A stretch of DNA of 64,000 nt from an uncultured bacterium. Its GTDB lineage: Bacteria; JAGOEH01. Position 1 is the first letter of the stretch; each line of letters starts with the position of its first letter. Location: assembly GCA_964632485.1 (NCBI GenBank), contig CAZWDO010000003.1:218204-282203 (forward strand). Reading direction: 5' to 3'. Below are positions 1 to 32,213 of the stretch, piece after piece. The notes beneath the pieces were generated by a model. That model saw only the letters and a program-made list of their open reading frames with translations. It was not told the DNA's origin and ran no database searches. The position numbers and the translations under genes were made by a program.

Positions 1-3000
1 GGTACGGCTGGCAAACCTACGTTGAATTCGGCCGTCCGGTCGACATTCAGAACCTCAACGCCGGCGCCACATTGCCGTTTATCCGCTTCTGGGTTGCTGC
101 TCGTCCTTCTGGCTGTTGCGACAGTCCCGAAGGTTCGATGGATCCCAGTTTGGGTGTGGATCTGGCTAACGCCGCAATGACCAATCGCGCCAATTGGGGC
201 GATGAATTCTTTTTTGGAATGTTCCCGGATCTGTTTGGTCCGTGGATGGGTACTCAGGACGGAGAAGCCTATTCTCCATACCGTATCCTTCCCGGAACCG
301 ATTACACAGCTTGTCCGGAGATTCTGGGCGGCGGCACAACCTGGGAACCGGATCTCTTCGAGGTTCGTCCGTCCCTGTTGCTGCGTCCCCGCACCAAAAC
401 CGGCGCCGCGGCCTGGACCACGGTTGACGGTTCGGAAGCTTCGTGGAACAACAAGGCCAATGATAATTCCGTTCCCGCCATGTGGGATGTCCCCGGTTTG
501 ATTCATGGTTGGCAAGGTAATGTGGGTCCTGTGGTCGCCATTGTTGACCCGATGGTCTCCACTGCCTATGCCACTGTTGATTACACCGATGATGGCGATG
601 CAATTTATGAAGCGGCCGACTGGGCTGACGACATGGCGATCCCTACCGGGAACCGTTATGCCTATTCCAGCCAGCAGACTGCTACTCAGGGTGGCGTTTA
701 TACCAACGTCCCGCCTTACACAACCGATTCGATTCAGGTGATCACCTGGGTGATGCAGGATCTCGACAACTGCGCGGATGACACTACGATCCATATCGCC
801 GTTGATACGGGTAACTCCGTATTTGATAACAGCGCCGACTGGTTTGGCAGCGCCGCCAGCGCCGCCGGTATCACCAATAGCGATGCGATCCATTTGGGTA
901 TCGACTCGGTGATTTTCATTGATGACGATAATCGCGGAATCAATCAACGGACCAATGAATTGGGCAACGTGATCGATTATTCGACCGTCAACAATGATCC
1001 GTCCACCTATGCTGATGCTCGCGCTTTATTAGCCATGGGCGGCGCCGGCGCGCATCCCTTCGTGGTTACCAACCGCGCCAATTGCGGTGTGACGTTGATC
1101 CGCGATACCGCGTTATGCGTTGATACCTTGATTTTCAATATCTACCACACCGATATGAATTTGACCGCGGTCGGCGAAACCGATCTGCGCGATTTCGTAT
1201 GGCGTGATGGTATGGTTGTGACTGCCCGGTTGTATGTGAAAGACCGCGGCGGAAATACTGTTTATACGAATTACAGCAAAGCTACCGTTAATAACAATTT
1301 TGTCGGCCGTCCGACTGAAGCCTGGATTACAGCCGGCTATGTGGAAACACGCTTTGCCGTCGATTTGTCCGCGCCGATCGCCAAGATGACTTGCCCCGAG
1401 TACATCAACCGTCCGGGACTCGATTATCAGCCGATACGCGTGGTCAATACGACCGATCCGATTATTCGCATTGAAATCAAAGATGCCTTTTTAAGCGACA
1501 CCACCAATTCTGCGACTAAAGTGGTCAATTGTAATGGTGAAAACCTTTACCCGACCTACCAGCGCAGTGGCGGTATTAATTCCAACGCGATTTATGTGCA
1601 TGATGACAACGCGCATTGGGATGACGCGCTTGCTTACCATTCACCGACGTATGCCCAGTTGACCTCCGGTATCTGGCGTACGAACAATGGTCGCGATGCG
1701 ACACTGGCCCCGGCTCCGGGAACCGGTTTCGATACAACCAACTTCGCGATTCTTTTGACCGTATGGGATTGCGATAACAGTTTAGCGACCGATGACCGCT
1801 TCGATCCGACCAACTTCGGTTGGGATGACGATGAAGATTGGGACACCGACGCCCAGGGTATCTGGGAAGGCGCCGCCGCTCAGGTTTTTATCTGGGAAGT
1901 GGAAGCCGCCAATGGCGTAACGTACGCCAAAGATGCGACTAATCCTCAGAATGGTATCCTCAGCATCAATCTGGCTGATGATTATTTTGACGCATTGGGC
2001 GCCGATACTGAAGACGGCGATGTGATCCTGGTAGAAATCGTCGATGCCGCCCTGGTAGCCGCAAATCGCGTTGCCTGGGGTCATGCTGCTGTTCGCTCCG
2101 ACGGTATTCATGATCAGCCGAATATTCTCTGGAGTCGTTATACCATTAATGATAACCAGTCTTCTACTGATCTGGATGCTGACGCTGAACCAGATTATGC
2201 CGCCGCTACCGCAAACGCGGATGATAACGGCGTATTCCTGCGCGACGACAACTGGTGGTACAACCCGTTGGATGCCCAGAATGTCCCGTTGAACTACCAG
2301 ACGTTTAATTTTCCTACTGGCGTCAATGGCGCCAACCATGAAGCTTTTAATGAAGAGCTTTGCGAACGTTTTAAATTCCGTTTTGGCAATTTTCAGGCCA
2401 ATTTCAACTATGCGTTCGGCAACCCGAACAAGCATTTCCTCCGTTTGGATGAAACCGACAGCGACGATGACGGCGATCATGACGCTCCGGAATACGAATG
2501 GCAGGTTGGGCTTGCCGGTGCCGGTGCCGAAGGTGATTTCCTTGGCTTAGGCTGGTATTTCGCCGATGACGCGCTGCTCGACGCCAATTTGGATGTCGAT
2601 GGCCGCGAACAAGACGGTTATACCTACGCTTCCGATACTCTCGGTTGGTTCTACGTTGATATGACCGGACCAATCGTTGATCTGGAATCGGTATATCCGT
2701 TTATGCGCCGCACCGATGATGGCGATGCCACTTGGTTTGAAAATAACATTGACGGCGCTGTCGCCGGTCATGATGAAGTGGCTACCAATGCCGAAAATCT
2801 TTATTCCTATACTTCCGATCCGTATCAAGTTATTTCGCTTGATCTGGCTGATCTTTCCTGCCGTTTCTATTCGCGCGATTTCGCGGCCGGCATGTCGATG
2901 AGCTCGGTAAAGATGCGGATTAAAGTAACCGCGTGCGACGGTACTTACCACCCGTGGTTTGGACCGAACGGAACGGTTTTCTCGATTGGCAATGGCAACC

Positions 3001-6000
3001 TGGTATCGGCTGATGAGGCCCCTGCTGATTGCCCGGCCTTCTATTTCGACCGTCCCACTGATCTGAACGAAGGCGCTGATGGCGCTGTCGTAACCGATCA
3101 GGCCGCTGACCGCGATCTGGACGATGACGGAACCCCCGATATCGTTGAGAAAGTATTAGGCCGCGTGGGTGGTACAAATGCAGACGATTATGATCTGGCT
3201 GCCGTAACACCGCAGACCCGTATCGTTTTCGACGCGCGTTTAGGCGCCCGTGACACCGAAAACCGCTTGGGATTCGGCACGAGCGAACCTCGTTATCGTT
3301 TCCGCGACGGTGATATGGTTTGCGTGAGCGTGTACGCAACCGATGTCGCCACTGGCGATTGCGACGATAACAATATCGGTAATGAAATCATCAATGAAGC
3401 CGCTTCTGAAAACGGCAATGTAATTACCGATAGCAATTATTTCAAGTACACCTTTGCCGTAGATACCAAAGAACCCACTATTGCCATTCAGAACAGCAAT
3501 AACTGGATGGAATTGGGTTGTAATAACGCGTATGTAGATATCCGCCTCAGTGATGTCTGTGACGAATGTTTTCAGAGCAACCAGTGCGGTGATGTGGCTG
3601 CCGGCGTTGATTCGCTTTTCCTGCAGCTTGAATTCACCCCGCAAGGCTCTGCAACATCGCAACTCAATCGCATTGCCGTCGGTATTTCCGATCTCACCAA
3701 TGCCGCTAATGAATGGGATCCGGTGCTTGAATGGCTGAACCCCGGCATGGAGTGGAATCTGAATAACGCCGCTGCGACTGATCTGTACGGCGCTTTCCTC
3801 GAAGATGCCGAGATCACGGCTGATGCAGCAGTTGATGCGGATTTGCATAAGCATAATGAGTATGCCAGTTCAGCGAACGAAAAAGCAAAATTTAACCATT
3901 ATACCTTGCGTTTATGGTTTAATTGCGATTACGTTGATGATGGCGATATGATCAAAATTTCTGCCTGGGGCCGTGATGCGATTGATGTACCCTGGTACCC
4001 GATTAACAGCGGTTGGGAAAACGGCGGACAGCTCGGCGCGGCCGATCTATCCGAACACCTTTTCCCGCAGGCTTTTGACCGCGTTCAGCAATTGGGCGCC
4101 ATCAACCATTGGTCCACCGCCGATGGCGATTATTATTACGATGACGGCTTATACAATGATATCGAATTCGATACCTATAACTATCGTCGTCATTTTGAAC
4201 ATCCCAACTTCGATATCGACACCGCCCGTTTGAACGGGACGACAGCCGAATGGCGCTGGGATAACAACACGACGCCGACTCGCACCTGGGGTTATTTCAC
4301 TCAGAAGAGTCCGGCTGATTTCTGGTGGCAGGGTCCGTTATACGCCGTTGCCAATGGTACTAATGATTGGCGTACCGGTGTGAACGCTACTGCCGCTTTC
4401 TTGAAGGACAGCACAAACACCGTCGTCAGTTACAATTATGGTAACAGCGATACGCGCAATCGTATGTACGGATTCCAGTATATTCACTGGTACAACGTAT
4501 GTCCGTGGGCGCTGGATTATCTTGCGCAACGCGATTCGTTGCTGACTATCGGCGCCAACAAAGTCGGTAGCTACCGAATTGCCGGCGAACATGTCGGTGA
4601 CAACAACCTCTGGGATCGTGGCGATGTCGGAACGGTTGATGATGCCTGGGTGCCTGGTTCAAACTGGACAGATGTCTTCCAGTATGATATGACGGACTAC
4701 GATTGGACCGATCTGGATTCGATCATGGTAGCCAACGCCGTGCACCACAACTGGGCAAAGCCCGTGGAATCCAATACGATTACCGTCGTATCGAATTCCA
4801 ATCTGTCCCGTGTGTATGATGAAGACTGGAGCACTCGTACGGCTCATGAAGATTGGGCTTGGTCCAATCCTGCCGCGACCAATATCGCTCATAGCGCGCC
4901 TTATGCGGCGTCCTACGGTGATGTTATCCGCGCGGCTGTCGTTGGCAGCGATGTCGATGGCAATGTGATCCGTCAGTATCGCACTGGTTTAGTCGATACG
5001 ATTATGGTTGATTTCCGCTCATGCTGGGATTTCAACTATTGTCATGAACCGATTGCCAACGATACGACCGTCGGTTTTGCCATGGAATGTTACGACAAAG
5101 ACGGTAACATTAAATGGTACTGGCCGTACAAAGTAGATGATATCCGTTATGGCACGGGTAATACCCACGCCAACTGGGAAGCCGCGTTCGCGACCGATAA
5201 AGCCGCCGCTAATGCTAGCGGATTTGCTCCGATCGCTTATCGTTGGTTCGATTGCGATTGTCCCGGATGTAATGGCGTTCGCTGGGCCGCCCTGGCTGAC
5301 AGCGGCTATTGTGGCGCCAACAACTATCGTTTAACTGTTGATCTTAACCAGTTAATTACCTGGAAGACCAATGGCGATTCCGTATGGTTGTCCCGCGGCA
5401 ATACCACTACCGCCTATGCTGATGGCGACAGTGTAATTTGCTACACCTATCTCAGCACGACCGCGACCGATGTCAATGCCGATGATCACAAGATCATCAC
5501 CAGTTGGTACTATCTGATCGATCAGATGGCTCCAGTGGCTAATTTCAATGACATCGAAATGTACACTCCGACCACATCGACGCAGTTGGTTGGTACAGTT
5601 TTTGGTTGGAACTACTACAGTGGACCTTCCACCGGCAATATCGATATGGCCGTTACTGCCCGCACTGCCAGTCTGGCGACTCCAGAATTTTTGGGACTGA
5701 GCGCCAAGGGTGAACAGAACATGGGTCTGGAAGCCAAGCGTTACGATTTCGTACGTATGGGCTTAGCCAATGCCATGGACTATGAAACCCAGCGTACGAT
5801 CGCCGGAACGCAGTATATCTCCAAGGTCGGTTTGACCGGTACTGCCACCGATGTTCGCCATGTAATTGGTAAACAGGAAGCCGGCGTATTGCTGGATGGT
5901 AATGTTTGGACTCAGGATGCCCCTGATGCCAACGTACTGAATATCCCCAATACGATCTGGAACACCCATTACGGCGAAGCCTATGGCGGCGGATATCGCG

Positions 6001-9000
6001 ACACCACTTATTGGGGCGCTGTATATGTTCATGATCAACGCACCAATGTTCGCGAATACATTGATACCCTCAAGTTCTATCTGCAGGATCGTTTAGGCAA
6101 TACCTCGACCTATACCCGCACCTACGTCGTAGATAACATTCTGCCGAAGATGGTGTGGAACTATTGTAATGGTAATCTGAACAAGCAGATGAACCTGAAT
6201 GAAACCGGAAACGATGGTTATTTCGGTTACTGGTTGAATGGCGAAGGCACCAACACCGATTACGATTATACCAGCGAAATGGCTGATTTCGTCGATACGT
6301 TGGGTCTTGCTATTTATCAGGCCAGTGATGCCACGACCACCTGGGAATGGGTGGATGTACTGGCGCTCAAAGGCCATCGCAGTTATACCCCCAATACAGA
6401 CAATTCAGCGGCGGATGCCGATACGATTAAGAATGTCTGTAAGGGTCAAATTTATGTAGTCGTTAATTTTAACGATCTGATGTATACCTCCAAGCTTGAC
6501 GGACATACCTTCTCTTCCGCTGGCGCGGTTAAAATTAAACCGCAGACCGGAGCCTGGAAGAACGTCAGCGCGATTGCCGGAGACCAAGTGACTCGTTTTG
6601 CCGAGAAACTGGCCGGATGGGGCAATGTACCGATTTTGGTCGCACAGGCCAATATGGGTGAAGCCATCAGTGAAATCGCTGTTGCCGATTCCAAAGACCG
6701 CGAAATGCTGGCTGAAAAGTCGAAAAATGCTCAGTTGAGCGCGAAGTATTATGACCAGGATGGCTGGTTGGATGAAAATACCTGGGTTGGTGGCATTTAC
6801 ATCGATACCACTACCGGCTGGAACGGCACTGCCCGTATGTCGGTTGTTGGATTCTATGATAAAGCCGGCAACAAGATGGTAGAAGACACCAGTTTGTGTT
6901 TCTACATCGAGTTCATGACTTCCCAGGGCGACATCATCATCGCCAATCCGGATGCTGACGACATCTATCCAGATGCCGCCAACAGTTGTCAGAATTATAT
7001 TATGATGGAAGATACGGTTATCAACCGTTCCGCTGTCAGCTCCCATTACTGGTTCTACGCGACCAATGGCGTTTATGGTGGAGATTACGGCGCTGATAAC
7101 CAGTTTGACGCTCCGACCGCTTTCAATGCGTTTGGCAGCGTAACTCCCGCTACGAATGCCGCTACTCCGAAACGCGTGCTTTTGTCGCAGGACCGCGCGG
7201 TTGTTTACACCTATTTCCAGGGTAACGCCGCTACGTATACCGACGATTTCGTCACTCGTCAGGACGTCCAGTTCAAGGCCGCCATCGCCGGTATGTCCGG
7301 TTGTGTGGATTCGATTGCCAAGACGGTCGCTCCGATCGAAGTCGATTTCGAGGATCCCGCCGTTTCTATTCTGACTGCGGATATCAACGTGCGTACTGCT
7401 GTTAGCAGCTATCGCAACCTTTATATCGAATCAGAATATTACGACGATGTAACGGCTTACTACGATACCGATGACGCCACCCAGGCCGCCTTGGCTTTCG
7501 GTGAAATCACTGCCGTATCCTTTGCCGTTAAAGATATTACCCGTGGCGATGCTGCTTTCACAACCATAGATTATGCAACCTATACCGATCCGACGCCGGA
7601 AACCGGTTTAGGCTGGGCTTTGGAACTTGATTCCTTAGTAAAATATGGTTTGATTGCCAGCGTTTATGATTCGCTGCACATTCAGTTAACCGCGACTGAC
7701 AATGCGTGCAATACCGGCACCGCTGTCGTTCCGGTTCCGCGTTTGATCTACATGCCGGCTCTGCTGGTCCGTGGACGTTCGCATGTAACGGGCGTCGATC
7801 CGTTGGAAGACGCTGTTCGCTCCGCGAAGTTTGAAGGCCTTGGCGCGGGTTATGCCCGTGAAATCTGGCCGCCTTTCTTCATGTTCAACGAATCGATGGA
7901 AGCTACGGTTACCGATGCCTACACGACACCGGCCAACCCGATCCGTATTCTCGATAGCCTCCAGGTGACGACCTTCACCCATTACAATGAAGCCGATATG
8001 AATCCGGACGTCAATGATCCGTTTGGTCATCTGTTCACGACCACCAAGCGCGATTATCCGGGCGATTCGCTTTACCTTGTATATTTTGACGAAGGTAATT
8101 ATCTGGGAGCCACCGACGATGTTTTCTTCATCGTCGAAGGCGCTGAAGTTGCCAATGGTATCTACAATCCGGGCGTAAAATTCTCCGCTCAGGCTGAAAA
8201 TCCTGAATGGGAATTGGCTGCCCAGCAGACTACCGTTGACGGCGTTACTTTCTGGTATGCCAAGCTGGAACTCGAAGACGAAGACTATGACCAGGATCAG
8301 TTTGTCCAGGTTACCGTTCGCGTCGATACATTGACGACCGGCAAAGCCTACTCGAAGAAGTTCACCGATTATACTTGGTTCCTGTTGGATACCGAGGATC
8401 CGATTTATGATGTTACCTATACCGACGATCAAGGTGTTGATCTCAAACAGGTAGCGACTGCCGTTCAGGTGCTGAACACCGAATCGCAGGGTGGCTACTC
8501 AGTAGATAAGACTTTGGCCGACGCTGGCGACATGGTTTGGATTACCAATGGACAACGCATACACGCCCTGGTTGATATGAATCAAACCATGAGCGCGTTG
8601 GGCGAACCCGTTGAAGCTACTGCTCGTATGTGGAAGCATATTAACGTTGATTTTGAAGCTCCGACTCAGGTGAATATGCGTTCATCCGATGAAGCTTTCC
8701 AGATCGATGTTGATACGCAGACCTACAGCAATTTCAATAACTGGTTAGACAAAGATTCCGTCAAGATTTACGACTTCATGACCTTAATTAACAACAGCAA
8801 TCCTGCCAACAGCGGATTTGCCTGGGTTAAGGTTGAAGAGCGTGATGCCGCCGGTAACTATGTCCGCGACTGGTCAACTGACAAGTGCACGGGCTTGGTA
8901 GTCTATTTGGATACCAAGAAACCGAGCGCGCCGAATGCAGAAAAACTGGGCGCTTATGTCCCGACCGCTTTAGCTGCCAATAATGGTTATGGCGCTGATA

Positions 9001-10469
9001 AAGCCGGTATCCAGGTGCAAGCCATGGAATCCGGTGTAACCGTTTTCGGTTACGTAGGCGCTGCCATTGATGATAGCTGGCCGACTTCGCTGACCCAGCC
9101 CGATAACAGTGTAACGGTTTATATTTATGAAGATGCAACGACCGCCACTCCGTTGGCCACTGCGGTAGCCAAGAATGACGGTAGTTTCACCGTAAATATC
9201 GCCGATGCCACTGAAGACGATGTGTTCTATGTTGCTATCGCTGATTACGCCGGTAATATGTCCGATCGTACCATGGTCACCACCACCGCTATGATCACGC
9301 AGATGATTCCGCTCAATCAGGGCTGGAACCTCTTCAGCGTAAACGTGATGGGTGATGATCTGCAGAAAGTGCTGAAAAATGAGAACGCTGGCCTTTACGC
9401 CAACAGTTTCTTTTATTTCTACACTGAAATGCGCGATGGGACGATTAAATCCTATAAGAAAGAAGATATGGAAGCTCTGCAAGCGACCGATCTGACCGTT
9501 TCTTTAGGAGAAGATAATCTGGCTTACTGGATCTATATGCTGAATGCCGATACCCTGGAAGTTACCGGAACTCCTGTTGATCCGGTCACTGAGATCGAAT
9601 TGGCCGACGGCGTATGGAACTATGTGGCTTACCTGCCGACCACTTCCGCCAAGATTAGCGGCGCTTTCAGCGTAGCTACTCTGGAAAACGTTGATGCGAT
9701 CGCTTCCGATGCATGGCGTACCGATGTGGTTGAAGGTGTTGCCGCTTCCGACAATATGATGTACCCTGGTAAGGGTTATCTGGTTCTGCCTGGCGCCGAA
9801 GGCGTCACTATCGCTTATGCTGCTCAGGGCGCTTTGGCGAAAGCCGAAACCGCTCCCGCGCGCGTCAGCGAAATGGTTGCTTCCCGCTACATGCAGGCTT
9901 TTACCGGTGAAGCCATGTTCTATGGCAAACCCGCCTACGAAGGCGACAAGGTCGAAGTCTTCAACGCCAATGGCGTCAAGTGTGGCGAAGGCTCCGTTGA
10001 CAAAAACGGCCGCTATGAAATCCTCGTTTATGGTGATGATCCTGTCAGTGATGCCGACGAAGGTATCGCGTTGGGTGAAACCTTCATCGTTCGTATCAAC
10101 AACGAAGAAGCTGTTTTCGACAATGCGCCGCTGTATGCCGGTGACCTGAGCAAGAAAGCTCTGAACCTGAATGTTCAGAAACCGTTGCCGAAGGTTTTCA
10201 GCCTGAACCAGAACGTCCCGAACCCGTTCAATCCGTCCACGATCATATCGTACGATGTTCCGAAAGCTGCTCATGTATCCCTGGTTATTTACAATAATCT
10301 CGGTGAAAGAGTATGCGCTTTGGTGAATGGCGCCAAAGAACCTGGAACCTATACGATTCGCTGGAACGGCGAGAACCAAAAGGGCGAAAAAGTAGCCAGC
10401 GGTGTTTATTTCTACAAGATGAAAGCCGGGGATTTTGAAGATTCCCGTCAGATGATGCTTGTAAAATAA
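1..10469 (+). CDS. Giant secreted/cell-surface protein (>3465 aa, 5'-truncated by the window edge) with a C-terminal T9SS type-A sorting domain. It is Asp/Asn/Thr/Trp/Tyr-rich and carries multiple DxDxDG-like putative Ca-binding motifs.
   Basis: The reading frame is open from position 3 to the stop at 10469, with no in-frame stop upstream of the annotated TTG at 72. The C-terminus reads ...NQNVPNPFNPSTIISYDV...GVYFYKMKAGDF...LVK, typical of a Por/T9SS C-terminal domain. Acidic motifs include DYTDDGDA, DSDDDGDHD, DLDDDGTPD and DYVDDGDM. A terminator follows the gene. Confidence 0.8.
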   Translation, partial: YGWQTYVEFGRPVDIQNLNAGATLPFIRFWVAARPSGCCDSPEGSMDPSLGVDLANAAMTNRANWGDEFFFGMFPDLFGPWMGTQDGEAYSPYRILPGTDYTACPEILGGGTTWEPDLFEVRPSLLLRPRTKTGAAAWTTVDGSEASWNNKANDNSVPAMWDVPGLIHGWQGNVGPVVAIVDPMVSTAYATVDYTDDGDAIYEAADWADDMAIPTGNRYAYSSQQTATQGGVYTNVPPYTTDSIQVITWVMQDLDNCADDTTIHIAVDTGNSVFDNSADWFGSAASAAGITNSDAIHLGIDSVIFIDDDNRGINQRTNELGNVIDYSTVNNDPSTYADARALLAMGGAGAHPFVVTNRANCGVTLIRDTALCVDTLIFNIYHTDMNLTAVGETDLRDFVWRDGMVVTARLYVKDRGGNTVYTNYSKATVNNNFVGRPTEAWITAGYVETRFAVDLSAPIAKMTCPEYINRPGLDYQPIRVVNTTDPIIRIEIKDAFLSDTTNSATKVVNCNGENLYPTYQRSGGINSNAIYVHDDNAHWDDALAYHSPTYAQLTSGIWRTNNGRDATLAPAPGTGFDTTNFAILLTVWDCDNSLATDDRFDPTNFGWDDDEDWDTDAQGIWEGAAAQVFIWEVEAANGVTYAKDATNPQNGILSINLADDYFDALGADTEDGDVILVEIVDAALVAANRVAWGHAAVRSDGIHDQPNILWSRYTINDNQSSTDLDADAEPDYAAATANADDNGVFLRDDNWWYNPLDAQNVPLNYQTFNFPTGVNGANHEAFNEELCERFKFRFGNFQANFNYAFGNPNKHFLRLDETDSDDDGDHDAPEYEWQVGLAGAGAEGDFLGLGWYFADDALLDANLDVDGREQDGYTYASDTLGWFYVDMTGPIVDLESVYPFMRRTDDGDATWFENNIDGAVAGHDEVATNAENLYSYTSDPYQVISLDLADLSCRFYSRDFAAGMSMSSVKMRIKVTACDGTYHPWFGPNGTVFSIGNGNLVSADEAPADCPAFYFDRPTDLNEGADGAVVTDQAADRDLDDDGTPDIVEKVLGRVGGTNADDYDLAAVTPQTRIVFDARLGARDTENRLGFGTSEPRYRFRDGDMVCVSVYATDVATGDCDDNNIGNEIINEAASENGNVITDSNYFKYTFAVDTKEPTIAIQNSNNWMELGCNNAYVDIRLSDVCDECFQSNQCGDVAAGVDSLFLQLEFTPQGSATSQLNRIAVGISDLTNAANEWDPVLEWLNPGMEWNLNNAAATDLYGAFLEDAEITADAAVDADLHKHNEYASSANEKAKFNHYTLRLWFNCDYVDDGDMIKISAWGRDAIDVPWYPINSGWENGGQLGAADLSEHLFPQAFDRVQQLGAINHWSTADGDYYYDDGLYNDIEFDTYNYRRHFEHPNFDIDTARLNGTTAEWRWDNNTTPTRTWGYFTQKSPADFWWQGPLYAVANGTNDWRTGVNATAAFLKDSTNTVVSYNYGNSDTRNRMYGFQYIHWYNVCPWALDYLAQRDSLLTIGANKVGSYRIAGEHVGDNNLWDRGDVGTVDDAWVPGSNWTDVFQYDMTDYDWTDLDSIMVANAVHHNWAKPVESNTITVVSNSNLSRVYDEDWSTRTAHEDWAWSNPAATNIAHSAPYAASYGDVIRAAVVGSDVDGNVIRQYRTGLVDTIMVDFRSCWDFNYCHEPIANDTTVGFAMECYDKDGNIKWYWPYKVDDIRYGTGNTHANWEAAFATDKAAANASGFAPIAYRWFDCDCPGCNGVRWAALADSGYCGANNYRLTVDLNQLITWKTNGDSVWLSRGNTTTAYADGDSVICYTYLSTTATDVNADDHKIITSWYYLIDQMAPVANFNDIEMYTPTTSTQLVGTVFGWNYYSGPSTGNIDMAVTARTASLATPEFLGLSAKGEQNMGLEAKRYDFVRMGLANAMDYETQRTIAGTQYISKVGLTGTATDVRHVIGKQEAGVLLDGNVWTQDAPDANVLNIPNTIWNTHYGEAYGGGYRDTTYWGAVYVHDQRTNVREYIDTLKFYLQDRLGNTSTYTRTYVVDNILPKMVWNYCNGNLNKQMNLNETGNDGYFGYWLNGEGTNTDYDYTSEMADFVDTLGLAIYQASDATTTWEWVDVLALKGHRSYTPNTDNSAADADTIKNVCKGQIYVVVNFNDLMYTSKLDGHTFSSAGAVKIKPQTGAWKNVSAIAGDQVTRFAEKLAGWGNVPILVAQANMGEAISEIAVADSKDREMLAEKSKNAQLSAKYYDQDGWLDENTWVGGIYIDTTTGWNGTARMSVVGFYDKAGNKMVEDTSLCFYIEFMTSQGDIIIANPDADDIYPDAANSCQNYIMMEDTVINRSAVSSHYWFYATNGVYGGDYGADNQFDAPTAFNAFGSVTPATNAATPKRVLLSQDRAVVYTYFQGNAATYTDDFVTRQDVQFKAAIAGMSGCVDSIAKTVAPIEVDFEDPAVSILTADINVRTAVSSYRNLYIESEYYDDVTAYYDTDDATQAALAFGEITAVSFAVKDITRGDAAFTTIDYATYTDPTPETGLGWALELDSLVKYGLIASVYDSLHIQLTATDNACNTGTAVVPVPRLIYMPALLVRGRSHVTGVDPLEDAVRSAKFEGLGAGYAREIWPPFFMFNESMEATVTDAYTTPANPIRILDSLQVTTFTHYNEADMNPDVNDPFGHLFTTTKRDYPGDSLYLVYFDEGNYLGATDDVFFIVEGAEVANGIYNPGVKFSAQAENPEWELAAQQTTVDGVTFWYAKLELEDEDYDQDQFVQVTVRVDTLTTGKAYSKKFTDYTWFLLDTEDPIYDVTYTDDQGVDLKQVATAVQVLNTESQGGYSVDKTLADAGDMVWITNGQRIHALVDMNQTMSALGEPVEATARMWKHINVDFEAPTQVNMRSSDEAFQIDVDTQTYSNFNNWLDKDSVKIYDFMTLINNSNPANSGFAWVKVEERDAAGNYVRDWSTDKCTGLVVYLDTKKPSAPNAEKLGAYVPTALAANNGYGADKAGIQVQAMESGVTVFGYVGAAIDDSWPTSLTQPDNSVTVYIYEDATTATPLATAVAKNDGSFTVNIADATEDDVFYVAIADYAGNMSDRTMVTTTAMITQMIPLNQGWNLFSVNVMGDDLQKVLKNENAGLYANSFFYFYTEMRDGTIKSYKKEDMEALQATDLTVSLGEDNLAYWIYMLNADTLEVTGTPVDPVTEIELADGVWNYVAYLPTTSAKISGAFSVATLENVDAIASDAWRTDVVEGVAASDNMMYPGKGYLVLPGAEGVTIAYAAQGALAKAETAPARVSEMVASRYMQAFTGEAMFYGKPAYEGDKVEVFNANGVKCGEGSVDKNGRYEILVYGDDPVSDADEGIALGETFIVRINNEEAVFDNAPLYAGDLSKKALNLNVQKPLPKVFSLNQNVPNPFNPSTIISYDVPKAAHVSLVIYNNLGERVCALVNGAKEPGTYTIRWNGENQKGEKVASGVYFYKMKAGDFEDSRQMMLVK

Positions 10470-10494
10470 GCGCCTCACGCATAGACTGATAAGT

Positions 10495-10526
10495 GGGTCA
10501 GGGCGCGAGCCCTGGCCCCCTTTTTT
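10495..10526 (+). terminator. Rho-independent terminator after the giant gene
   Basis: GC-rich stem gggtcagggc/gccctggccc with a gcga loop, followed by cccccTTTTTT. Confidence 0.5.
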
Positions 10527-10664
10527 CAGTTATTGCCTTGCGATACCTGAAAAAAGGGAAGCACCAAATAAAACCGACCAAGAAAAGGAGGCGCTGCTTC
10601 GGATCTTTTACACACGTCTATTGTTTCAGTTAACCAAAAACGCTCGTCAAAACGGAGGGTTTAA

Positions 10665-12372: not shown

Positions 12373-12410
12373 GCCGCCTTTATCCCAAACCGGGTAAAGG
12401 CGGCTTTTTT
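12373..12410 (+). terminator. Rho-independent terminator
   Basis: Stem gccgccttta ... taaaggcggc followed by TTTTTT. Confidence 0.55.
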
Positions 12411-12424
12411 GTTTAGTCAGGACC

Positions 12425-12592
12425 GTCATTCCGGGCTCGCGCCCGGAATCCACGGGTCACCTTCTGTCATTCCGGGCTTGACCCGGAATCCAACGATAAA
12501 CGATGGATGCCGGATCGGAGTCCGGCATGACGACGGATGATGGCATTCCGGCTTGACCGCCAGCGCGGCTCGCGCCCGGAATCCACGGGTCA
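12425..12592. repeat. Cluster of at least 4 GC-rich palindromic REP/MITE-like hairpin repeats (GTCATTCC-stem-loop-GGAATCC family)
   Basis: Perfect hairpins are present: gtcATTCCGGGCtcgcGCCCGGAATcc at 12425-12451, gtcATTCCGGGcttgaCCCGGAATcc at 12466-12491 and ATGCCGGAtcggagTCCGGCAT at 12507-12528. The segment ctcgcgcccggaatccacgggtca is duplicated at 12564-12592. Confidence 0.6.
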
Positions 12593-12605
12593 AAAAACCA
12601 ACTAT

Positions 12606-14351
12606 ATGAAAGGAACAAGCATGAGAAGAGTTTTTCAATATCTTCTGCTAATATTAATATCTATTATATCGGTCAGCCAAGCCCAGCAGTCCTGGAGAGT
12701 TGGATTTAAGCTGTATGTATTTATCGATAGCGTCAAAGCGCCCATTCATACAATCGTTGAAGTAAGAGATGTTAATGGTAGTCAATATGATAGTCAAAGT
12801 AAACCCTATGCGTCTCCAATAGTCTCAGAAGTTGAAACATCCTTAGGTACGGCTTTTATTAATGCTCTGGGCGATAATCCGAATACTTCCACAGTACAGG
12901 AAGGCGGATTTACTATTGGCCAAAAAATTTATTTCTATGTCAATAGCAAACGGGCAACAGTTAAGTGTAAGAGCCCGAGTAGTAATTGTGATCTTTATAC
13001 TAACCCTTCTGATCCTACGTTTCCCCCTTCCCAACGGGAGCTGGAAATTTACATTTCTTCCCAGCAACAGACCATTGATACATGTACTTTTACAGGCAGT
13101 GTGTTCATCAACAATGCGCCGGCTCCGGCAGGCTCCCAGATATCGTTTCACGACAAGAACAATCCTACAACATACACCTGGAAAACGATCGCCACTTCGT
13201 CATTGGGCTCATACACGGTAAAAATTGCGGAAGATGATCCGGAAACTACCGGTAAGCAAGGTCCTCTTGATGGAGACACTTTGATTGCGCGAATAAATAA
13301 TTTGTCCGCCGGATCGGATATCCCGCTTATTTTCCGTCCGGGACAAACCCAAATGGTAAGTCTTTCCTATACGGACCCTGACACTTTGCTGTGTACATTT
13401 AATGGAATGATGTGTATGCTGGACGGTCAATTCATAACGTCTCTGGTAACTGTGGAGGCCTTTAATAAGTACAATAAAGTGTGCGGCGCGGCAATCGGGA
13501 CATCCACTCCGGTTCCGGGTTCGTTTACCTTGAATGTTCGCAAAGAAAAAGGCGATAATACCGGTGTCGTAGAAGGCGATTCTGTTTATTTTAAGTTTAA
13601 CGGAGGCAAGGCCCGAACGACAACCATGAGTCCGACGCTTTCTCCATTTTTTTGTTATGAGGATTCCTCATATATGGTGGTTTTGGAAGCAACAACTCCG
13701 CCGCCACCCCAACCGGATACTAATTTTTTTATGCAGTTGTCCGGAACATTGTATGCCGGAGGAGCAGTGGCCAAGCGAAATCTGATTACTGTTAAAACCA
13801 GCGGGAAGACCATGGCTTGTACCACCGCTACCAACGATAACGGACAATTTATCCTGAAAGCCTGGGGCGATAGTCCGTTGACTACCGATGTGGTTGAAGG
13901 CTTTGAGGATGAAGATACCCTGACTTTTTACCATCTTTACAACGGAACAAATCAACCCGTTCAGATGCTCTATCCGACGACGCCCATCACATATGAATTG
14001 TTTGGACTGATTGCGAATATTATGATTTATAACAGTATCGTCGATATAGAAGCAGAAGAAACGCTGATCAAATCTCCAGCTCTGCTTTTATCCAATATTC
14101 CTAATCCGTTCAACCCCGGTACAAATATCCGCTTTAATTTAACAGAACGAACCAATGTGCAGATAACTATATTTAATGTGTTGGGGAATGAAATCAGGCG
14201 ATTGTCAAACCAGCTTTTCCCGGCGGGTGAACACCAGCTCTACTGGAACGGTTGCAGCGATCAGGGTGAACCTCAGTCCGCTGGTATCTACTTTGTCCGT
14301 TTACGGGCAGCGGATATGCAGCATACGCAGAAAATCACACTGATGAAATGA
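12606..14351 (+). CDS. Secreted T9SS cargo protein (~580 aa) with repeated modules related to the upstream neighbour. The start is probably ATG 12606 or 12621, not 12537, which lies inside the repeats.
   Basis: Signal peptide MRRVFQYLLLILISIISVSQAQ. The internal modules carry DNGQFILKAWGD...VVEGFEDEDTLTF-type motifs. The C-terminus reads LSNIPNPFNPGTNIRFNL...GIYFVRL..., a T9SS CTD. GC content is lower than in the flanking genes. Confidence 0.75.
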   Translation: MKGTSMRRVFQYLLLILISIISVSQAQQSWRVGFKLYVFIDSVKAPIHTIVEVRDVNGSQYDSQSKPYASPIVSEVETSLGTAFINALGDNPNTSTVQEGGFTIGQKIYFYVNSKRATVKCKSPSSNCDLYTNPSDPTFPPSQRELEIYISSQQQTIDTCTFTGSVFINNAPAPAGSQISFHDKNNPTTYTWKTIATSSLGSYTVKIAEDDPETTGKQGPLDGDTLIARINNLSAGSDIPLIFRPGQTQMVSLSYTDPDTLLCTFNGMMCMLDGQFITSLVTVEAFNKYNKVCGAAIGTSTPVPGSFTLNVRKEKGDNTGVVEGDSVYFKFNGGKARTTTMSPTLSPFFCYEDSSYMVVLEATTPPPPQPDTNFFMQLSGTLYAGGAVAKRNLITVKTSGKTMACTTATNDNGQFILKAWGDSPLTTDVVEGFEDEDTLTFYHLYNGTNQPVQMLYPTTPITYELFGLIANIMIYNSIVDIEAEETLIKSPALLLSNIPNPFNPGTNIRFNLTERTNVQITIFNVLGNEIRRLSNQLFPAGEHQLYWNGCSDQGEPQSAGIYFVRLRAADMQHTQKITLMK

Positions 14352-14373
14352 TCTTCATTCCCGCCTCACTCCT

Positions 14374-14398
14374 GTCATTCCTGCGTAGGCAGGAATCC
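14374..14398. repeat. Single REP-like hairpin of the same family
   Basis: gtcATTCCTGCgtagGCAGGAATcc is a perfect 8-bp stem. Confidence 0.5.
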
Positions 14399-14433
14399 AA
14401 GAATCTGGGAATCGGTGAACAAGGGATAACTGT

Positions 14434-14721
14434 ATGGATCAGGCTTATGTTTATATATTAGCCAGTAAAAAAAATGGAACATTGTATGTTGGAGTGACCA
14501 GCAATTTGCTCCGACGAATTTGGGAACATAAAAATGATCTTGTAGAAGGATTTACAAAGAACTACAATGTCCATGTGCTGGTTTTTTATGAAATTTTTAG
14601 TGAGATGTATCCGGCAATTACTCGTGAAAAGCAGTTGAAAAAATGGAAAAGAGAATGGAAGATAGGACTAATAGAGTCTATAAATCCGCAATGGAAAGAT
14701 TTGTATGAAAGTCTTTTATAA
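14434..14721 (+). CDS. GIY-YIG nuclease family protein (95 aa, UPF0213/YhbQ-like)
   Basis: YVYILASKKNGTLYVGVTSNLLRRIWEHK followed by ...REKQLKKWKREWKIGLI match the GIY-YIG catalytic core pattern (GIY...YVG...R...E). Confidence 0.8.
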   Translation: MDQAYVYILASKKNGTLYVGVTSNLLRRIWEHKNDLVEGFTKNYNVHVLVFYEIFSEMYPAITREKQLKKWKREWKIGLIESINPQWKDLYESLL

Positions 14722-14724
14722 AAG

Positions 14725-14850
14725 ATGGATGCCGGGTCAAGCCCGGCATGACGGCGGTGGCTCATGGATGCCGGGTCAAGCCCGGCATGACGGCGGTGAC
14801 TCATGGATGCCGGGTCAAGCCCGGCATGACGGCGGTGATTTATGGATGGC
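14725..14850. repeat. Tandem array of ~3.3 copies of a 39-bp unit. Each unit contains the hairpin ATGCCGGGtcaagCCCGGCAT, the reverse-orientation variant of the 12.4 kb REP family.
   Basis: Unit atggatgccgggtcaagcccggcatgacggcggtgRctc at 14725-14763, 14764-14802 and 14803-14841, plus a partial fourth copy. The loop tcaag is the reverse complement of cttga in the 12466 copy. Confidence 0.7.
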
Positions 14851-14892
14851 GCATCATGCGCAATATGACAATACACAGATAAGGTAGGTTTC

Positions 14893-27106: not shown

Positions 27107-28339
27107 ATGAAAATTCTGCACACATCCGATTGGCATTTGGGACGAAGTCTCAACGGCCGCAAACGTTATGAGGAGCAAGAGGCGTTCCTTGACTGGTTGG
27201 CTGAAACCATTGATCGTGAAGGGATCGATGCATTATTGGTGGCTGGCGATCTTTTTGACGCCAGTACTCCCAGCAACCGCGCTCAGGAACTCTATTACCG
27301 TTTTATGTGCCGAGTGGCGTCCTCGCCCTGTCGGCATGTGGTCGTTATTGGCGGCAACCATGATTCACCCTCCTTTCTTGACGCGCCCAAAGAATTGCTC
27401 AAGTCGCTGAATGTTCACGTTGTCGGCAGCATTACTGATAATCCAGACGATGAGGTGATCGCGCTCGCCGATGCGCGGGGAGCTACTGAATTGGTCGTAT
27501 GCGCCGTGCCTTACCTGCGTGATCGTGATATCCGCTCAGCGGAAGCAGGTGAGAGTATAGAGGACAAGGAACGCAAGCTGGTCGAGGGAATTCGCAATCA
27601 TTATGCAGAAGTCACGCGTTCGGCGGAATCTAAGCGCGCCGAAGCGGGCGGCAATATCCCGCTGGTCGCCATGGGGCATCTGTTCACCGCTGGTGGGTTG
27701 ACCGTCGCTGAGGACGGCGTGCGTGAACTCTATGTAGGATCGTTGGCCCATGTCCGCGCTGACAATCTGCCCGCCAGTCCTGATTATTTCGCATTGGGCC
27801 ATCTTCATGTTCCGCAAACTGTCGGCGGGTCTGATTATATCCGCTATTCCGGATCGCCCATTCCCATGGGATTTGGCGAAATCAATCATGCCAAAAGCGT
27901 GGTCATCGTGGATTTTTCGGATGGAATTCCGCCGCGGATATCGGAGATTCCCGCGCCGCTGTTTCAGCGAATGGAACGTGTTCGCGGAGATTGGTCTCAA
28001 ATTGAGGCCCGACTTCGGGAACTGGCCGCCGCCGGAGTCTCGATCTGGCTGGAAGTAGTTTATGAAAGCGACGAAATCATGGGCGATCTGCGCCAACGCG
28101 TGATGGAACGGGTCGAGAATACCTGTCTCGAAGCGCTGAACGTAAAAAATCCCCGCGCCATTGAAAAAGCCCTGGAACAATCCCAGTGCCATGAATCCCT
28201 CGAGGAATTAGATGAGTACCAGGTGTTCGAACGTCTGCTATCGTCCCGGAAGGCGCCGGAAGAGCAGAGATCGGCATTGATTCATACCTATCGCGAAGCG
28301 GTTCAGTCGCTTTACGACGATGATGCGAATGCGGAATAG
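27107..28339 (+). CDS. sbcD: Exonuclease SbcCD nuclease subunit D (Mre11-like phosphoesterase)
   Basis: RBS AGGAGG. MKILHTSDWHLG...LLVAGDLFD...VIGGNHDS are the calcineurin-like phosphoesterase motifs I-III. Confidence 0.85.
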   Translation: MKILHTSDWHLGRSLNGRKRYEEQEAFLDWLAETIDREGIDALLVAGDLFDASTPSNRAQELYYRFMCRVASSPCRHVVVIGGNHDSPSFLDAPKELLKSLNVHVVGSITDNPDDEVIALADARGATELVVCAVPYLRDRDIRSAEAGESIEDKERKLVEGIRNHYAEVTRSAESKRAEAGGNIPLVAMGHLFTAGGLTVAEDGVRELYVGSLAHVRADNLPASPDYFALGHLHVPQTVGGSDYIRYSGSPIPMGFGEINHAKSVVIVDFSDGIPPRISEIPAPLFQRMERVRGDWSQIEARLRELAAAGVSIWLEVVYESDEIMGDLRQRVMERVENTCLEALNVKNPRAIEKALEQSQCHESLEELDEYQVFERLLSSRKAPEEQRSALIHTYREAVQSLYDDDANAE

Positions 28340-28348
28340 GAGGATTTG

Positions 28349-31300: not shown

Positions 31301-32053
31301 CGGCGCGAGAAATCGGATCAGTTGGACTTGGAACGCCGGAAGCGGATCACGGAAGAGGAGTACACAGCGCTCCGGGAAGCGATAGTTATGCTAGGCGATG
31401 AGCAACGGCAAGCGCAGCAGCGGATCGGCGCTGTCCGCCAGCGGCTCGCTGAAAATGAAGGCAGAAAACAGCGCTGGCAGGAACAGATGGATGCGATTAC
31501 CGCGCAACGGTTAGAATGCGCGCGGTGGGACGAGTTGCATGCGCTGATCGGTTCGTCCGATGGCAAGAAATACCGCAATTTCGCCCAGGGGCTGACGTTC
31601 CAGGTCATGGTCAATCACGCCAATGATCAATTGCAGAAAATGAGCGATCGCTATTTGTTGACCAGGGATAGAGGGGAACCATTGGAATTGAAAGTGATGG
31701 ATGCCTATCAGGCCGGAGAGGAGCGTTCCACCCGTAATCTCTCGGGTGGTGAAAGTTTTATTGTTAGTCTGGCCTTGGCCCTGGGGCTTTCCCGCATGGT
31801 GAGCCGCAATGTGCGGGTCGATTCGCTGTTTCTGGACGAGGGTTTCGGTACGTTGGACCCGGAAGCGTTGGATATGGCCCTCAACACACTCTCCAATTTG
31901 CAACAGGATGGTAAGCTGATCGGGATCATCTCCCATGTGGGGGCCATGCGCGACCGGATATCCGCCAGGATTCAGGTTAAACCGGTTTCCGGCGGGTGGA
32001 GTCTTTTGGAGGGCGCGTGTATTTCTCGTCCGAGTCAAGCTTCGAAAACGTAA
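28349..32053 (+). CDS. sbcC: Exonuclease SbcCD ATPase subunit C (Rad50-like SMC)
   Basis: Walker A GPTGSGKTTILDAICLALYG, a long coiled coil, the zinc hook CPLCGARQHP, the signature LSGGESFIVSLALALGL and Walker B SLFLDEGFGTLD. Confidence 0.85.
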   Translation: MRILHIRFRNLNSLVGEWCIDLTHPEIVSNGIFAIVGPTGSGKTTILDAICLALYGCTPRLGKISSSDNEIMSRQTVECYAEVTFETQKGRYRCHWSQHLARRKLSGPLQQPRHELADASVEPARVLANGSEVVKCVEEATGMDFGRFTRSMLLAQGNFAAFLQSKSDDRSALLEEITGTDIYSRISLRVHDRRKAERDKLDLMNDKAEEIELLSSEDERQLAAALEIDAKREQELNAEIGLRNQAIVWLDGMVRLEEELIKIDELQGAWETRMAAFAPERERLRLARLAGELEIDFKNLSRSRREFEEIRRQLDEKQSSLPKVEADVFLADDAMKAANDRLNAAKLERQNMKPVIDKARELDTKIVEKEVPIRTQRDDFHRSESELGRMTEQRDEIASQLGRSSHTFDQLLQWQERNSADERLIKQLSAIENRFDALRESHHRYRNSLQESGNAEKQLQAETWLMQKAQEKLKRRQEELERIQQELSVGERECKLLLGDQVLAGWRNRQIRLIERKELLNRLGEALRRVGESEAVIEKSEGRDRGSQTQYDELNTRLAGLMEKRPTLESEVELLENQLLLLKRIEDYETARHQLMDGEPCPLCGARQHPFAQGNIPVPDATRQRLDAARGELKSVSDALSKLRIRLAQLDQELKHEEAKRREHRERIAAARANIAEICEQVPDELNVSAGDPDLSSNIERLRNENQQEWNQVSKIVESAESLETQLQTLHQSLLKTGKAVGQAEREMGDAMHRRNLTDQSLSRLKSEMETLGLRNEETLTALNREVEFFGIKDLTIDRLDSVKTALKERCEQWQVKSRERDDLERKIAKLENSAVALSESMEKTETELNAKRRQLEILEREQEELHRERWDLFGDKRPFDEEMRLDAAIASAEDDSDKIRDRLSKAREWLGGVRAAMEQLTIRLREREAQVESETGQFRKRLEEKGFVNEEGYLGVCLTAVERGNLEQRERILADENLELSSRRREKSDQLDLERRKRITEEEYTALREAIVMLGDEQRQAQQRIGAVRQRLAENEGRKQRWQEQMDAITAQRLECARWDELHALIGSSDGKKYRNFAQGLTFQVMVNHANDQLQKMSDRYLLTRDRGEPLELKVMDAYQAGEERSTRNLSGGESFIVSLALALGLSRMVSRNVRVDSLFLDEGFGTLDPEALDMALNTLSNLQQDGKLIGIISHVGAMRDRISARIQVKPVSGGWSLLEGACISRPSQASKT

Positions 32054-32135
32054 AAATAATTCCGATCTCAGTGTCATGCCGTTCGCGCCGGGTTGCGGCA
32101 TCTATCTTTGATAAGATGTTTCCTCTGCTTGCGAA

Positions 32136-32208
32136 GGAATCCCCTCACCCTGCCCTCTCCCCAATGGGGCGAGGAGATAAGAGGGGGCGCGGGAATGACA
32201 GGAATGAC
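32136..32208. repeat. Reverse-orientation copy of the GTCATTCC/GGAATCC hairpin-repeat family, with a degenerate copy also at ~32073-32100
   Basis: GGAATCC...cgGGAATGACaGGAATGAC (minus strand reads GTCATTCCtGTCATTCCcg...GGATTCC), and atgccg...cggcat at 32075-32100. Confidence 0.4.
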
Positions 32209-32213
32209 GGGGA

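Follow-up and report, generated by a model that had tools for sequence, protein, structure and literature searches.

A gene for a small stand-alone nuclease that lies among similar DNA hairpins raises the question of whether gene and hairpins form one system, and of which kind. Such a gene is found in a stretch of 64,000 nucleotides from an uncultured bacterium (GenBank assembly GCA_964632485.1, contig CAZWDO010000003.1, positions 218,204 to 282,203; hereafter the window), where it encodes a GIY-YIG protein of 95 residues. A preliminary description, made from the letters of the sequence, had offered two answers: a nuclease-associated repeat system, or a homing-type element inserted into a cluster of repetitive extragenic palindromic (REP) sequences. 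We consider it very likely that the locus is an Ssn-SRM module, that is, a nuclease gene of the Ssn family together with hairpins that are its predicted recognition motifs. The first of the two answers matches in this way a kind of system published in 2025 (Chenal et al., 2025, Nat Commun 16:2388; PMC11893778), whose repeats had been catalogued in 2013 (Di Nocera et al., 2013, BMC Genomics 14:522; PMC3733652), and it agrees with the homology to a gonococcal SsnA orthologue and with the 80 homologous loci described below. The locus is a rediscovery from raw sequence that extends the family by one member, of a sparsely sampled lineage, and its uses are modest.

The report on the Ssn nucleases was the first description of the pairing between gene and hairpins (Chenal et al., 2025). 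In Neisseria, an oriented motif of 28 nt, NTS (CGTCATTCCCGCGMAVGCGGGAATCYRG), has the dRS3 palindrome at its core. SsnA, a single-domain GIY-YIG protein of 94 residues (CDD cd10448), binds NTS only as single-stranded DNA (ssDNA), and its cut falls a few nucleotides upstream of the motif; the protein is inactive on double-stranded DNA (dsDNA), on RNA and on the reverse strand, and its mutants Y6A, Y17A and E64A keep the binding and lose the cutting. In N. meningitidis, SsnA lowers the transformation by NTS-bearing DNA about 5-fold, and NTS clusters flank surface-protein genes. Homologues of ssnA across bacteria are flanked by NTS-like motifs (SRM), at least one being nearby in 71% of the cases and both sides being occupied in 42% (Chenal et al., 2025). 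The catalogued repeats are the CGTC-tagged REPs, families CGTC-1 to CGTC-4, which carry a CGTC or TGTC tag, a stem of 8-9 bp starting with AT and a CCA tail; the loop has 4 nt in family 1, which includes dRS3, and 5 nt in families 2-4 (Di Nocera et al., 2013). The Rickettsia repeats RPE-4 and RPE-6 belong to them as well. These REPs favour inverted dimers, 'apparently lack a dedicated transposase' and are not associated with RAYT (Di Nocera et al., 2013).

The nuclease and the hairpins around it

The stand-alone GIY-YIG gene of the preliminary description was borne out. PF01541 (GIY-YIG) is the sole Pfam match of the protein (E 1.2e-17, residues 4-76), and an AlphaFold2 model (pLDDT 86) gave a compact beta-beta-alpha-beta-alpha-alpha arrangement with the GIY-YIG fold. 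Both Pfam and the model show a single domain, without a separate DNA-binding domain, and the length of 95 residues is within the range of about 94-100 aa expected of an Ssn protein. BLASTP aligned the window protein with a 94-aa open reading frame (ORF) of N. gonorrhoeae at 60% identity, ungapped over 89 residues (E 3e-39), and tblastn against the N. gonorrhoeae chromosome gave E 5e-28; the sequence compared was this gonococcal ORF, not that of N. meningitidis SsnA itself. We take the ORF as the SsnA orthologue because its length and its residues Y6, Y17 and E64 agree with the published protein, and through it the window protein lies below the E value of 1e-10 that served there as the homology criterion for Ssn membership (Chenal et al., 2025). 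The residues Y6, Y17, R27, H31 and E64 of SsnA are Y7, Y18, R28, H32 and E65 in the window protein, and these five catalytic-core positions (Y, Y, R, H, E) are invariant in 82 of 82 aligned family members. The window protein is a member of the Ssn family, and its catalytic residues are conserved.

The gonococcal ORF comes from the 2.17-Mb record NZ_CP119140.1 (locus L101), which, like a second N. gonorrhoeae record of that length, NZ_CP119142.1, is labelled a plasmid and is chromosome-sized. Gonococcal ssnA is flanked by canonical NTS, with 16 copies in 3.3 kb; the hairpin nearest to it on the upstream side is reverse and that on the downstream side forward, contrary to the layout of most loci reported below.

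The term 'UPF0213-like', which had been applied to the protein, holds for the fold, to which BH0048 (1zg2) is nearest, and not for the sequence, given 26% identity to E. coli YhbQ (E 5e-6). In a Foldseek search with the model the best matches were 1zg2 (E 4.6e-5) and Slx1 (4xlg, 7cq2), the identity to solved structures being 22-28%, and I-TevI was found at E 0.55. The match to TIGR01453 of NCBIfam was below threshold (22 bits against a cut-off of 56, E 1e-4), and PHROG homing-endonuclease families gave weak, motif-level matches (E 3e-4 to 3e-3). Matches in the defence-system and phage libraries were rejected as classifications, being weak and at the level of the motif. No match was obtained in a sequence search of the PDB, so that there is no solved Ssn structure for comparison, and no homologue of the window protein was found among 50,697 phage records.

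Hairpins were searched with the strict motif GTCATKCC-N-GGMATCC, and the number expected was derived from dinucleotide-preserving shuffles. Seven matches were found in the window, as compared to 0.02 expected (Table 1), and they lie on both strands, as the preliminary description had it. The survey covered about 74 kb, that is, the window and about 10 kb beyond its right end (L104). All seven matches are within 2.0 kb of the ssn gene and none is in the other ~70 kb; the right-hand 10 kb contains neither a hairpin nor a second ssn, and the window itself has one ssn copy. The intact hairpins fold as ssDNA, with z from -3.6 to -4.0 with respect to shuffles. All seven read (C/T)GTC-AT...AT-CCA; the stem has 8 bp in six and 9 bp in one, and the loop has 4 nt in two, 5 nt in four and 6 nt in one (12505). 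Two structural classes can be distinguished, one with an 8-bp stem and a 4-nt loop (14374) and the other with an 8-bp stem and the 5-nt loop CTTGA (12466 and the downstream array), and the copies at 12425 (9-bp stem, 4-nt loop) and 12505 (6-nt loop) fit neither. A frame GTCATTCC...GGAATCC had been ascribed to all the hairpins; it was found in three only, and the other four have GTCATGCC/GGCATCC.

Oriented hairpins stand on either side of the ssn gene. The upstream one, known from the preliminary description, is present (ssDNA fold -7.7 kcal/mol, z -3.9), and it ends 35 nt, not 36 bp, before the ssn ATG. The downstream tandem array likewise has the 39-bp period that had been given for it; it comprises 3.2 copies (96% matches, score 227 in Tandem Repeats Finder) and begins 3 nt past the stop codon, in place of the 3.3 copies, the end at 14850 and the distance of 4 bp that had been reported. 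Three hairpins of the array fold as ssDNA. In the cluster 1.8-2.0 kb before ssn (12425-12592), for which at least four hairpins had been claimed, three are intact and the fourth is a chimeric or partial copy. Two of the intact ones make up a gene-less doublet, in which the 8 nt before the reverse hairpin (ATAAACGA) match in 7 of 8 positions the end of the ssn gene plus spacer (ATAAAAGA). As a sign that the doublet derives from the cassette, this short resemblance is suggestive only.

A further copy had been placed at 32136-32208. This minus-strand element is not a clean hairpin: it consists of GTCATTCC half-sites around a long G/C-rich insert, and its fold reaches z values of only -1.2 and -2.0. 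The insert is a G/C-rich palindromic sequence (CCCTCTCCCCAATGGGGCGAGG...). The element is part of a degenerate cluster that fills the gap 32054-32213 between sbcD-sbcC (27107-32053) and a convergent gene. The SbcCD nuclease cleaves DNA hairpins, and the vicinity of hairpins and sbcDC may be a coincidence. Left half-sites (TCATTCC...) stand 9-20 nt upstream of a full forward hairpin at 14354-14364 and 32192-32208 of the window and in four of the homologous loci (L013, L062, L067 and L077); solitary half-sites of this kind could be truncated neighbours or scars.

The array leaves traces in annotations and assemblies. Its translation is a 60-aa ORF of WMPGQARHDGG repeats (14705-14887), which was called as a gene in the JGI annotation (L083:2813-2995, L103:14041-14223). 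In the Logan short-read assembly of SRR7760392, one contig ends 33 bp after the ssn stop codon and the next begins 84 bp before the transporter gene (14722-14892; L001, L082). Both ends fall in the array, and this indicates that the 39-bp array breaks short-read assembly, which is probably also the reason why many ssn homologues are found on contigs of 0.5-2 kb.

Table 1. Positions of the nuclease gene, the hairpin repeats and the adjacent surface-protein gene in the window.
Feature	Position	Strand	Basis and remarks
ssn gene, single-domain GIY-YIG nuclease of the Ssn family, 95 aa	14434-14721	+	Pfam, homology, AlphaFold2 model
Upstream hairpin GTCATTCCTGCGTAGGCAGGAATCC, 8-bp stem, 4-nt loop, CCA tail, NTS / CGTC-1 type	14374-14398	+	motif, fold
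Solitary left half-site TTCATTCCCGC	14354-14364	+	10 nt before the 14374 hairpin
Tandem array of reverse hairpins GTCATGCCGGGCTTGACCCGGCATCCA, 8-bp stem, loop CTTGA, NTSvar-like / CGTC-2 type	14725-14848	-	Tandem Repeats Finder
Fourth, degenerate array hairpin GTCATATTGCGCATGATGCGCCATCCA	14843-14869	-	repeat comparison (84%, third copy of its family); fold
Forward hairpin GTCATTCCGGGCTCGCGCCCGGAATCC, 9-bp stem, 4-nt loop	12425-12451	+	motif, fold
Gene-less doublet, forward 12466-12492 and reverse 12504-12531	12466-12531	both	tails facing, 11-nt spacer, 90% repeat family
Chimeric or partial hairpin copy	12545-12592	+	last 26 nt = 12434-12459 (100%)
Degenerate third cluster	32073-32208		imperfect forward hairpin 32073-32103; minus-strand part 32136-32208
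Strict motif matches, forward	12425-12451, 12466-12491, 14374-14398	+	
Strict motif matches, reverse	12505-12531, 14727-14752, 14766-14791, 14805-14830	-	
Gene for a secreted or surface protein sorted by the type IX secretion system (T9SS), neighbour and not part of the module	12621-14351	+	Pfam Por_Secre_tail, FlgD_ig

The cassette in other genomes

Thousands of homologues of the window protein were found. A homologue scan with one genome per species gave 593 confirmed loci, and the comparison was made with the best 80 of them (L002-L081); on the basis of the record titles these 80 come from 15 phyla, and their proteins are 58-70% identical to the window protein. With the strict motif, 33 forward copies were found at most 50 bp upstream and 35 reverse copies at most 50 bp downstream of the gene, and in 62 of the 80 loci a copy lies no more than 200 bp away. 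Most of the loci without the strict motif show, on inspection, variant hairpins with changed stems beside the gene, for example GTCATACC, GTCATCCC and GTCGTCCC. A structural finder (GTC, then the two arms of a stem of at least 7 bp around a loop, then C) was used in place of the published strings. It gave 41 forward hairpins at most 30 bp upstream and 42 reverse hairpins at most 30 bp downstream. Hairpins are present on both sides of the gene in 44 of the 80 loci and on at least one side in 67, so the association that the preliminary description had proposed to look for, between GIY-YIG homologues and adjacent hairpins, recurs across the 15 phyla. The distance from stop codon to hairpin has a mode of 3 nt. 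The window cassette, with its hairpins 35 nt upstream and 3 nt downstream, has the same layout as these loci, and the geometry of the cassette is conserved across phyla.

In 18 of the 80 loci, canonical Neisseria NTS with at most 1 mismatch occurs no farther than 100 bp from the gene, its density there being 41-fold that of the flanks. This result ties the set of homologues to the published motif. Neighbouring hairpins in the 80 loci were most often arranged as forward-reverse pairs with the tails facing each other (56), followed by reverse-forward (36), reverse-reverse (14) and forward-forward pairs (11), and around the gene itself the tails-facing arrangement was observed in 31 of 54 cases. 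The tetraloops beside ssn are nearly all GNRN (GAAA 30, GAAG 27, GCAG 22 and GAAC 13) and the pentaloops nearly all CYTGW (CTTGA 11, CCTGA 6 and CTTGT 3); both loop classes stand beside one gene in eight loci, as in the window. Conservation of the loop across phyla suggests that it is the Ssn protein that reads the loop. Two loci carry two ssn copies: an Anaerolineae metagenome-assembled genome (MAG), in which they are 4 kb apart (L015:5001-9266), and a Chloroflexota chromosome, in which they are in tandem at a distance of 110 bp (L026:5001-5679). Therefore, ssn is not always single-copy.

Several results weigh against the identification of the locus as an Ssn-SRM module. The published search strings, built from 29 genomes, are the SRM string HGTCWYN(0-2)YYVSBRHN(0-5)WNVSBRGN(0-2)RNCYNB and the NTS and NTSvar consensuses with at most 1 mismatch each. 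The SRM string has 0 matches in the window, and no window hairpin is within 3 mismatches of either consensus. The best NTS match (14373-14400) has 5 mismatches, which are a compensated stem pair (2), the loop (1) and the ends (2), and NTSvar has no window site within 6 mismatches. Since the published strings miss the window hairpins, which are variants with a T:A stem pair or with a longer GGGC stem, the family match rests on shared architecture, namely a (C/T)GTCAT head, an 8-9-bp stem starting with AT, a 4- or 5-nt loop and an ATCCA tail. Furthermore, two hairpin classes flank one ssn gene, the biochemistry of the family is confined to members from Neisseria and Wolbachia, and the evidence on the repeats comes from about 74 kb of the host genome.

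The window hairpins agree with the description of the CGTC-tagged REPs, the tetraloop copy being of the CGTC-1 type and the pentaloop copies CGTC-2-like. The SRM string misses real variants, among them the T:A stem pair, which the window shares with several loci of planctomycetes and Nitrospirota, and the GGGC-stemmed pentaloop class; for this reason, the published repeat counts are probably underestimates. The presence of two hairpin classes at one ssn gene bears on how the specificity of the enzyme is to be read.

Predicted activity, mobility and host role

Cleavage of ssDNA only, with orientation specificity, and the limiting of transformation in N. meningitidis are taken from the literature (Chenal et al., 2025). 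By analogy with the Neisseria enzyme, the window protein would ignore RNA as well as DNA in duplex form. DNA can become single-stranded at replication forks, in transcription bubbles and in the course of uptake or conjugation; the motif would then fold into a stem-loop, which Ssn would bind in one orientation only, on the sense strand, and the strand would be hydrolysed on the 5' side of the (C/T)GTCAT head, at a distance of about 3 nt. This distance is our interpretation of the lengths of the oligonucleotides in that report. We infer that this enzyme would cut both hairpin classes of the window; the predicted cuts are just left of 14374 on the top strand and just right of each array unit on the bottom strand. 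Since the heads of the hairpins point outward, the predicted cuts fall just outside the cassette, one per strand. In the host, the candidate roles would be the trimming of incoming or exposed ssDNA near the flanked T9SS gene and the maintenance or spreading of the repeats.

The spreading of the repeats leads to a reading that would add to the Ssn-SRM identification and is compatible with it. The cassette may be, or may have been, a selfish mobile element that is mobilised by Ssn, with the gene-less doublets and the arrays as its non-autonomous derivatives, a GIY-YIG counterpart of RAYT and REPINs or of insertion sequences and their miniature inverted-repeat derivatives (MITEs). We regard this as possible, though doubtful. 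The same hypothesis was raised by Chenal et al. (2025), who left the role of Ssn outside Neisseria open. It is favoured by the prevalence of the tails-facing pair, with heads outward, both among neighbouring hairpins and around the gene. In addition, the inner flanks of gene-less doublets match the leader and the trailer of the cassette in the same locus at 6.6 and 8.0 of 10 nt, as compared to 4.4 between loci, and the doublet spacer of L062 and L033 consists of the leader of the cassette joined to its trailer, between which the ORF is found in the cassette. Doublets that carry the leader and trailer of a cassette in other genomes are a testable handle on whether Ssn spreads the repeats.

The organisation of L062 (4340-5900) illustrates the relationship. 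At least 11 tandem units of about 112 bp are present, in each of which a conserved spacer of 27 nt separates a forward hairpin with a tetraloop from a reverse hairpin with a pentaloop. One of these spacers contains the ssn ORF, between TTAACC and AGTTGAA. The gene-less unit is thus the cassette minus the ORF. However, many repeats are in tandem, such as the window array and the 112-bp units of L062, and slippage or recombination explains them without transposition. The chemistry also speaks against mobilisation by Ssn: a hydrolytic GIY-YIG nuclease forms no covalent intermediate and has no known strand-transfer activity, and each strand has one sense-oriented end, so that single-strand excision of the IS200/IS605 type is impossible as such.

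Comparison between genomes gave results on both sides. The homology between cassettes stops at the hairpins (L035 and L041, 84% over -43 to +50), one MAG has two cassette copies at different sites (L025 and L030), and the mean protein identity is equal within phyla (62.4%) and between phyla (62.1%); these results favour a mobile cassette. However, the duplicated unit of L025, L030 and L035 is delimited by an outer inverted repeat of 17 bp, accompanied by direct repeats of 11-12 bp, which points to another (DDE-type) transposase as the mobiliser. The cassette is syntenic within Thiobacillus, Neptuniibacter and Gallionella, and no empty site was found for the window locus: a scan of metagenome contigs for a sister locus or empty site, carried out with the neighbouring SSF transporter, gave relatives of at most 32% identity (45% in one fragment of 31 residues).

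The cassettes with the outer inverted repeat lie inside a unit of about 515 bp, at L025:4890-5410 and L030:4890-5385, on two contigs of a deltaproteobacterial MAG, and at L035:4915-5330. The unit is bounded by the perfect 17-bp inverted repeat CATAAGCGCTAACTTAA and flanked by the 11-12-bp direct repeats, which resemble target-site duplications; the units of L025 and L030 are 91% identical, and their homology ends at the inverted repeats. This looks like a cassette mobilised by a classical transposase. The window lacks the 17-bp inverted repeat, as do 97 of the 100 loci examined; being lineage-specific, the repeat is not shared beyond them, and it was rejected as a marker of the ends of the window cassette.

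In its broadest form, this line of thought would make Ssn the long-missing generator and spreader of the whole CGTC-tagged REP superfamily (including dRS3 and NIMEs of Neisseria and the RPEs of Rickettsia), with the cassette as the autonomous element and the doublets as internally deleted forms; we put it forward as a tentative proposal. If true, it would represent a second, mechanistically independent solution to the REPIN-RAYT lifestyle, based on GIY-YIG and not on HUH, and the window, with one cassette, one doublet and one tandem array, would show a low-copy stage of it, either early or decaying.

We now come back to the Ssn-SRM module and its surroundings, which bear on a possible role for the host. 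The hairpin clusters at 12425-12592 and 14354-14869 bracket the Por_Secre_tail protein gene, which itself follows two other surface-protein genes. A Pfam scan of about 45 ORFs of the window found chromosomal housekeeping, signalling and surface-protein genes (methylmalonyl-CoA mutase, RNase R, HtpG, SbcCD and a sigma-54 two-component system, among others), and no RAYT, IS200, Y1_Tnp or other transposase domain, so for these ORFs the absence of RAYT noted beforehand holds. Ssn might be a device kept by the host for trimming ssDNA near loci marked by the hairpins, which would result in less replacement of the T9SS gene by incoming homologous ssDNA, or in more variability. The intact catalytic residues and the housekeeping, chromosomal character of the surrounding genes are consistent with this, as are the transformation effect of SsnA and the position of the NTS clusters in N. 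meningitidis (Chenal et al., 2025). However, the idea rests on a single locus, the bracketing of the T9SS gene may simply follow from a cassette and derivative repeats lying in adjacent intergenic gaps, and the gap between the first two surface-protein genes (10470-10664) contains no hairpin. We therefore judge such a device to be rather unlikely.

Two observations concern the host and the contig. The nearest named relative of the methylmalonyl-CoA mutase is from a Candidatus Delongbacteria MAG (77% identity), and on this basis the host is tentatively placed as a deep-branching bacterium. Look-ups with the exact protein led to the same organism only, in a JGI contig (Ga0207193_1000008), an ENA contig and Logan SRR7760392. 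The ORF at 72-10469 has 3465 aa, and in the JGI copy of the contig (3300020048, Ga0207193_1000008) two genes are called in its place, of at least 2969 aa and of 834 aa; the JGI and window contig versions differ by 81 bp (316,876 vs. 316,795).

The second answer of the preliminary description, a GIY-YIG homing endonuclease inserted into a pre-existing cluster of unrelated REPs, is very improbable. GIY-YIG domains do occur in homing endonucleases, and the weak PHROG and TIGR01453 matches go in this direction. However, the GIY-YIG domain covers residues 4-76 of the 95, a DNA-binding domain is absent, the gene is not set in an intron or intein, dsDNA is not cut by the characterised relative, and no homologue was found in the 50,697 phage records; the same hairpins travel with the gene in 15 phyla in a fixed geometry and were not there beforehand at this locus alone.

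That the hairpins are ordinary terminators or RAYT-mobilised REPs next to the nuclease by coincidence is hardly credible: they are intergenic and downstream of genes, and one array copy is terminator-like in score on the minus strand, but they lack a T-run on the transcribed strand, the true terminator of the upstream gene is a separate hairpin (12373-12404), no transposase domain is present among the scanned ORFs, the repeat head is CGTC, CGTC-tagged REPs are not associated with RAYT (Di Nocera et al., 2013), and hairpins are strongly enriched beside the gene across phyla.

Comparison with known systems

The window protein shares the minimal GIY-YIG fold with UPF0213/YhbQ and with Slx1. Slx1 has an additional RING-type domain and works with a partner, Slx4. 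The window protein is paired with a repeat; the literature surveyed ties neither YhbQ nor Slx1 to a cognate repeat. In homing endonucleases of the I-TevI type, the GIY-YIG domain is joined to a DNA-binding module and the gene is found in introns, inteins or free-standing in phages; the window protein has no second domain, and no homologue of it was found in the phage records searched.

With REP/REPIN-RAYT and with IS200/IS605 elements the locus has in common a small nuclease gene placed between inverted hairpin copies that are recognised as ssDNA, and, as in REPIN-RAYT systems, gene-less inverted doublets and arrays resembling bacterial interspersed mosaic elements occur elsewhere. Like RAYT genes, ssn is usually single-copy per genome and its inheritance is partly vertical. 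Unlike the REPIN-RAYT enzyme, an HUH tyrosine transposase, Ssn is a hydrolytic GIY-YIG protein that is not known to transpose anything; the head of the repeats is CGTC and not GTAG, and no Y1_Tnp domain was found among the scanned ORFs. Judged by its scanned ORFs and its repeat head, the window is outside the REPIN-RAYT family.

The similarity to the CGTC-tagged REPs extends to the tag, the AT-started stem of 8-9 bp, the loop of 4 or 5 nt, the CCA tail, the intergenic location and the absence of an associated RAYT. Inverted dimers with conserved spacers are also shared, and the 'HH dimer' of the catalogue may be the tails-facing pair. Unlike the 2013 catalogue, in which no dedicated enzyme was found, the repeats of the window surround an ssn gene, in line with the 2025 report.

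The closest counterpart is the SsnA system of Neisseria, with some differences. The host of the window is an uncultured bacterium with genes for T9SS cargo, and not a pseudomonadote; its hairpins are outside the published SRM string and the NTS and NTSvar consensuses; tetraloop and pentaloop classes occur at one gene, with a 39-bp array downstream; and about 7-11 copies were counted in 74 kb, not hundreds, around a nuclease that is known from its sequence. In both systems, however, a single-domain GIY-YIG protein of 94-95 residues with the same catalytic residues is encoded by a gene that stands between oriented hairpins, whose head is (C)GTCAT, whose 8-bp stem begins with AT and whose tail is ATCC, and, as with NTS in Neisseria, these repeats cluster in the intergenic regions beside surface-protein genes.

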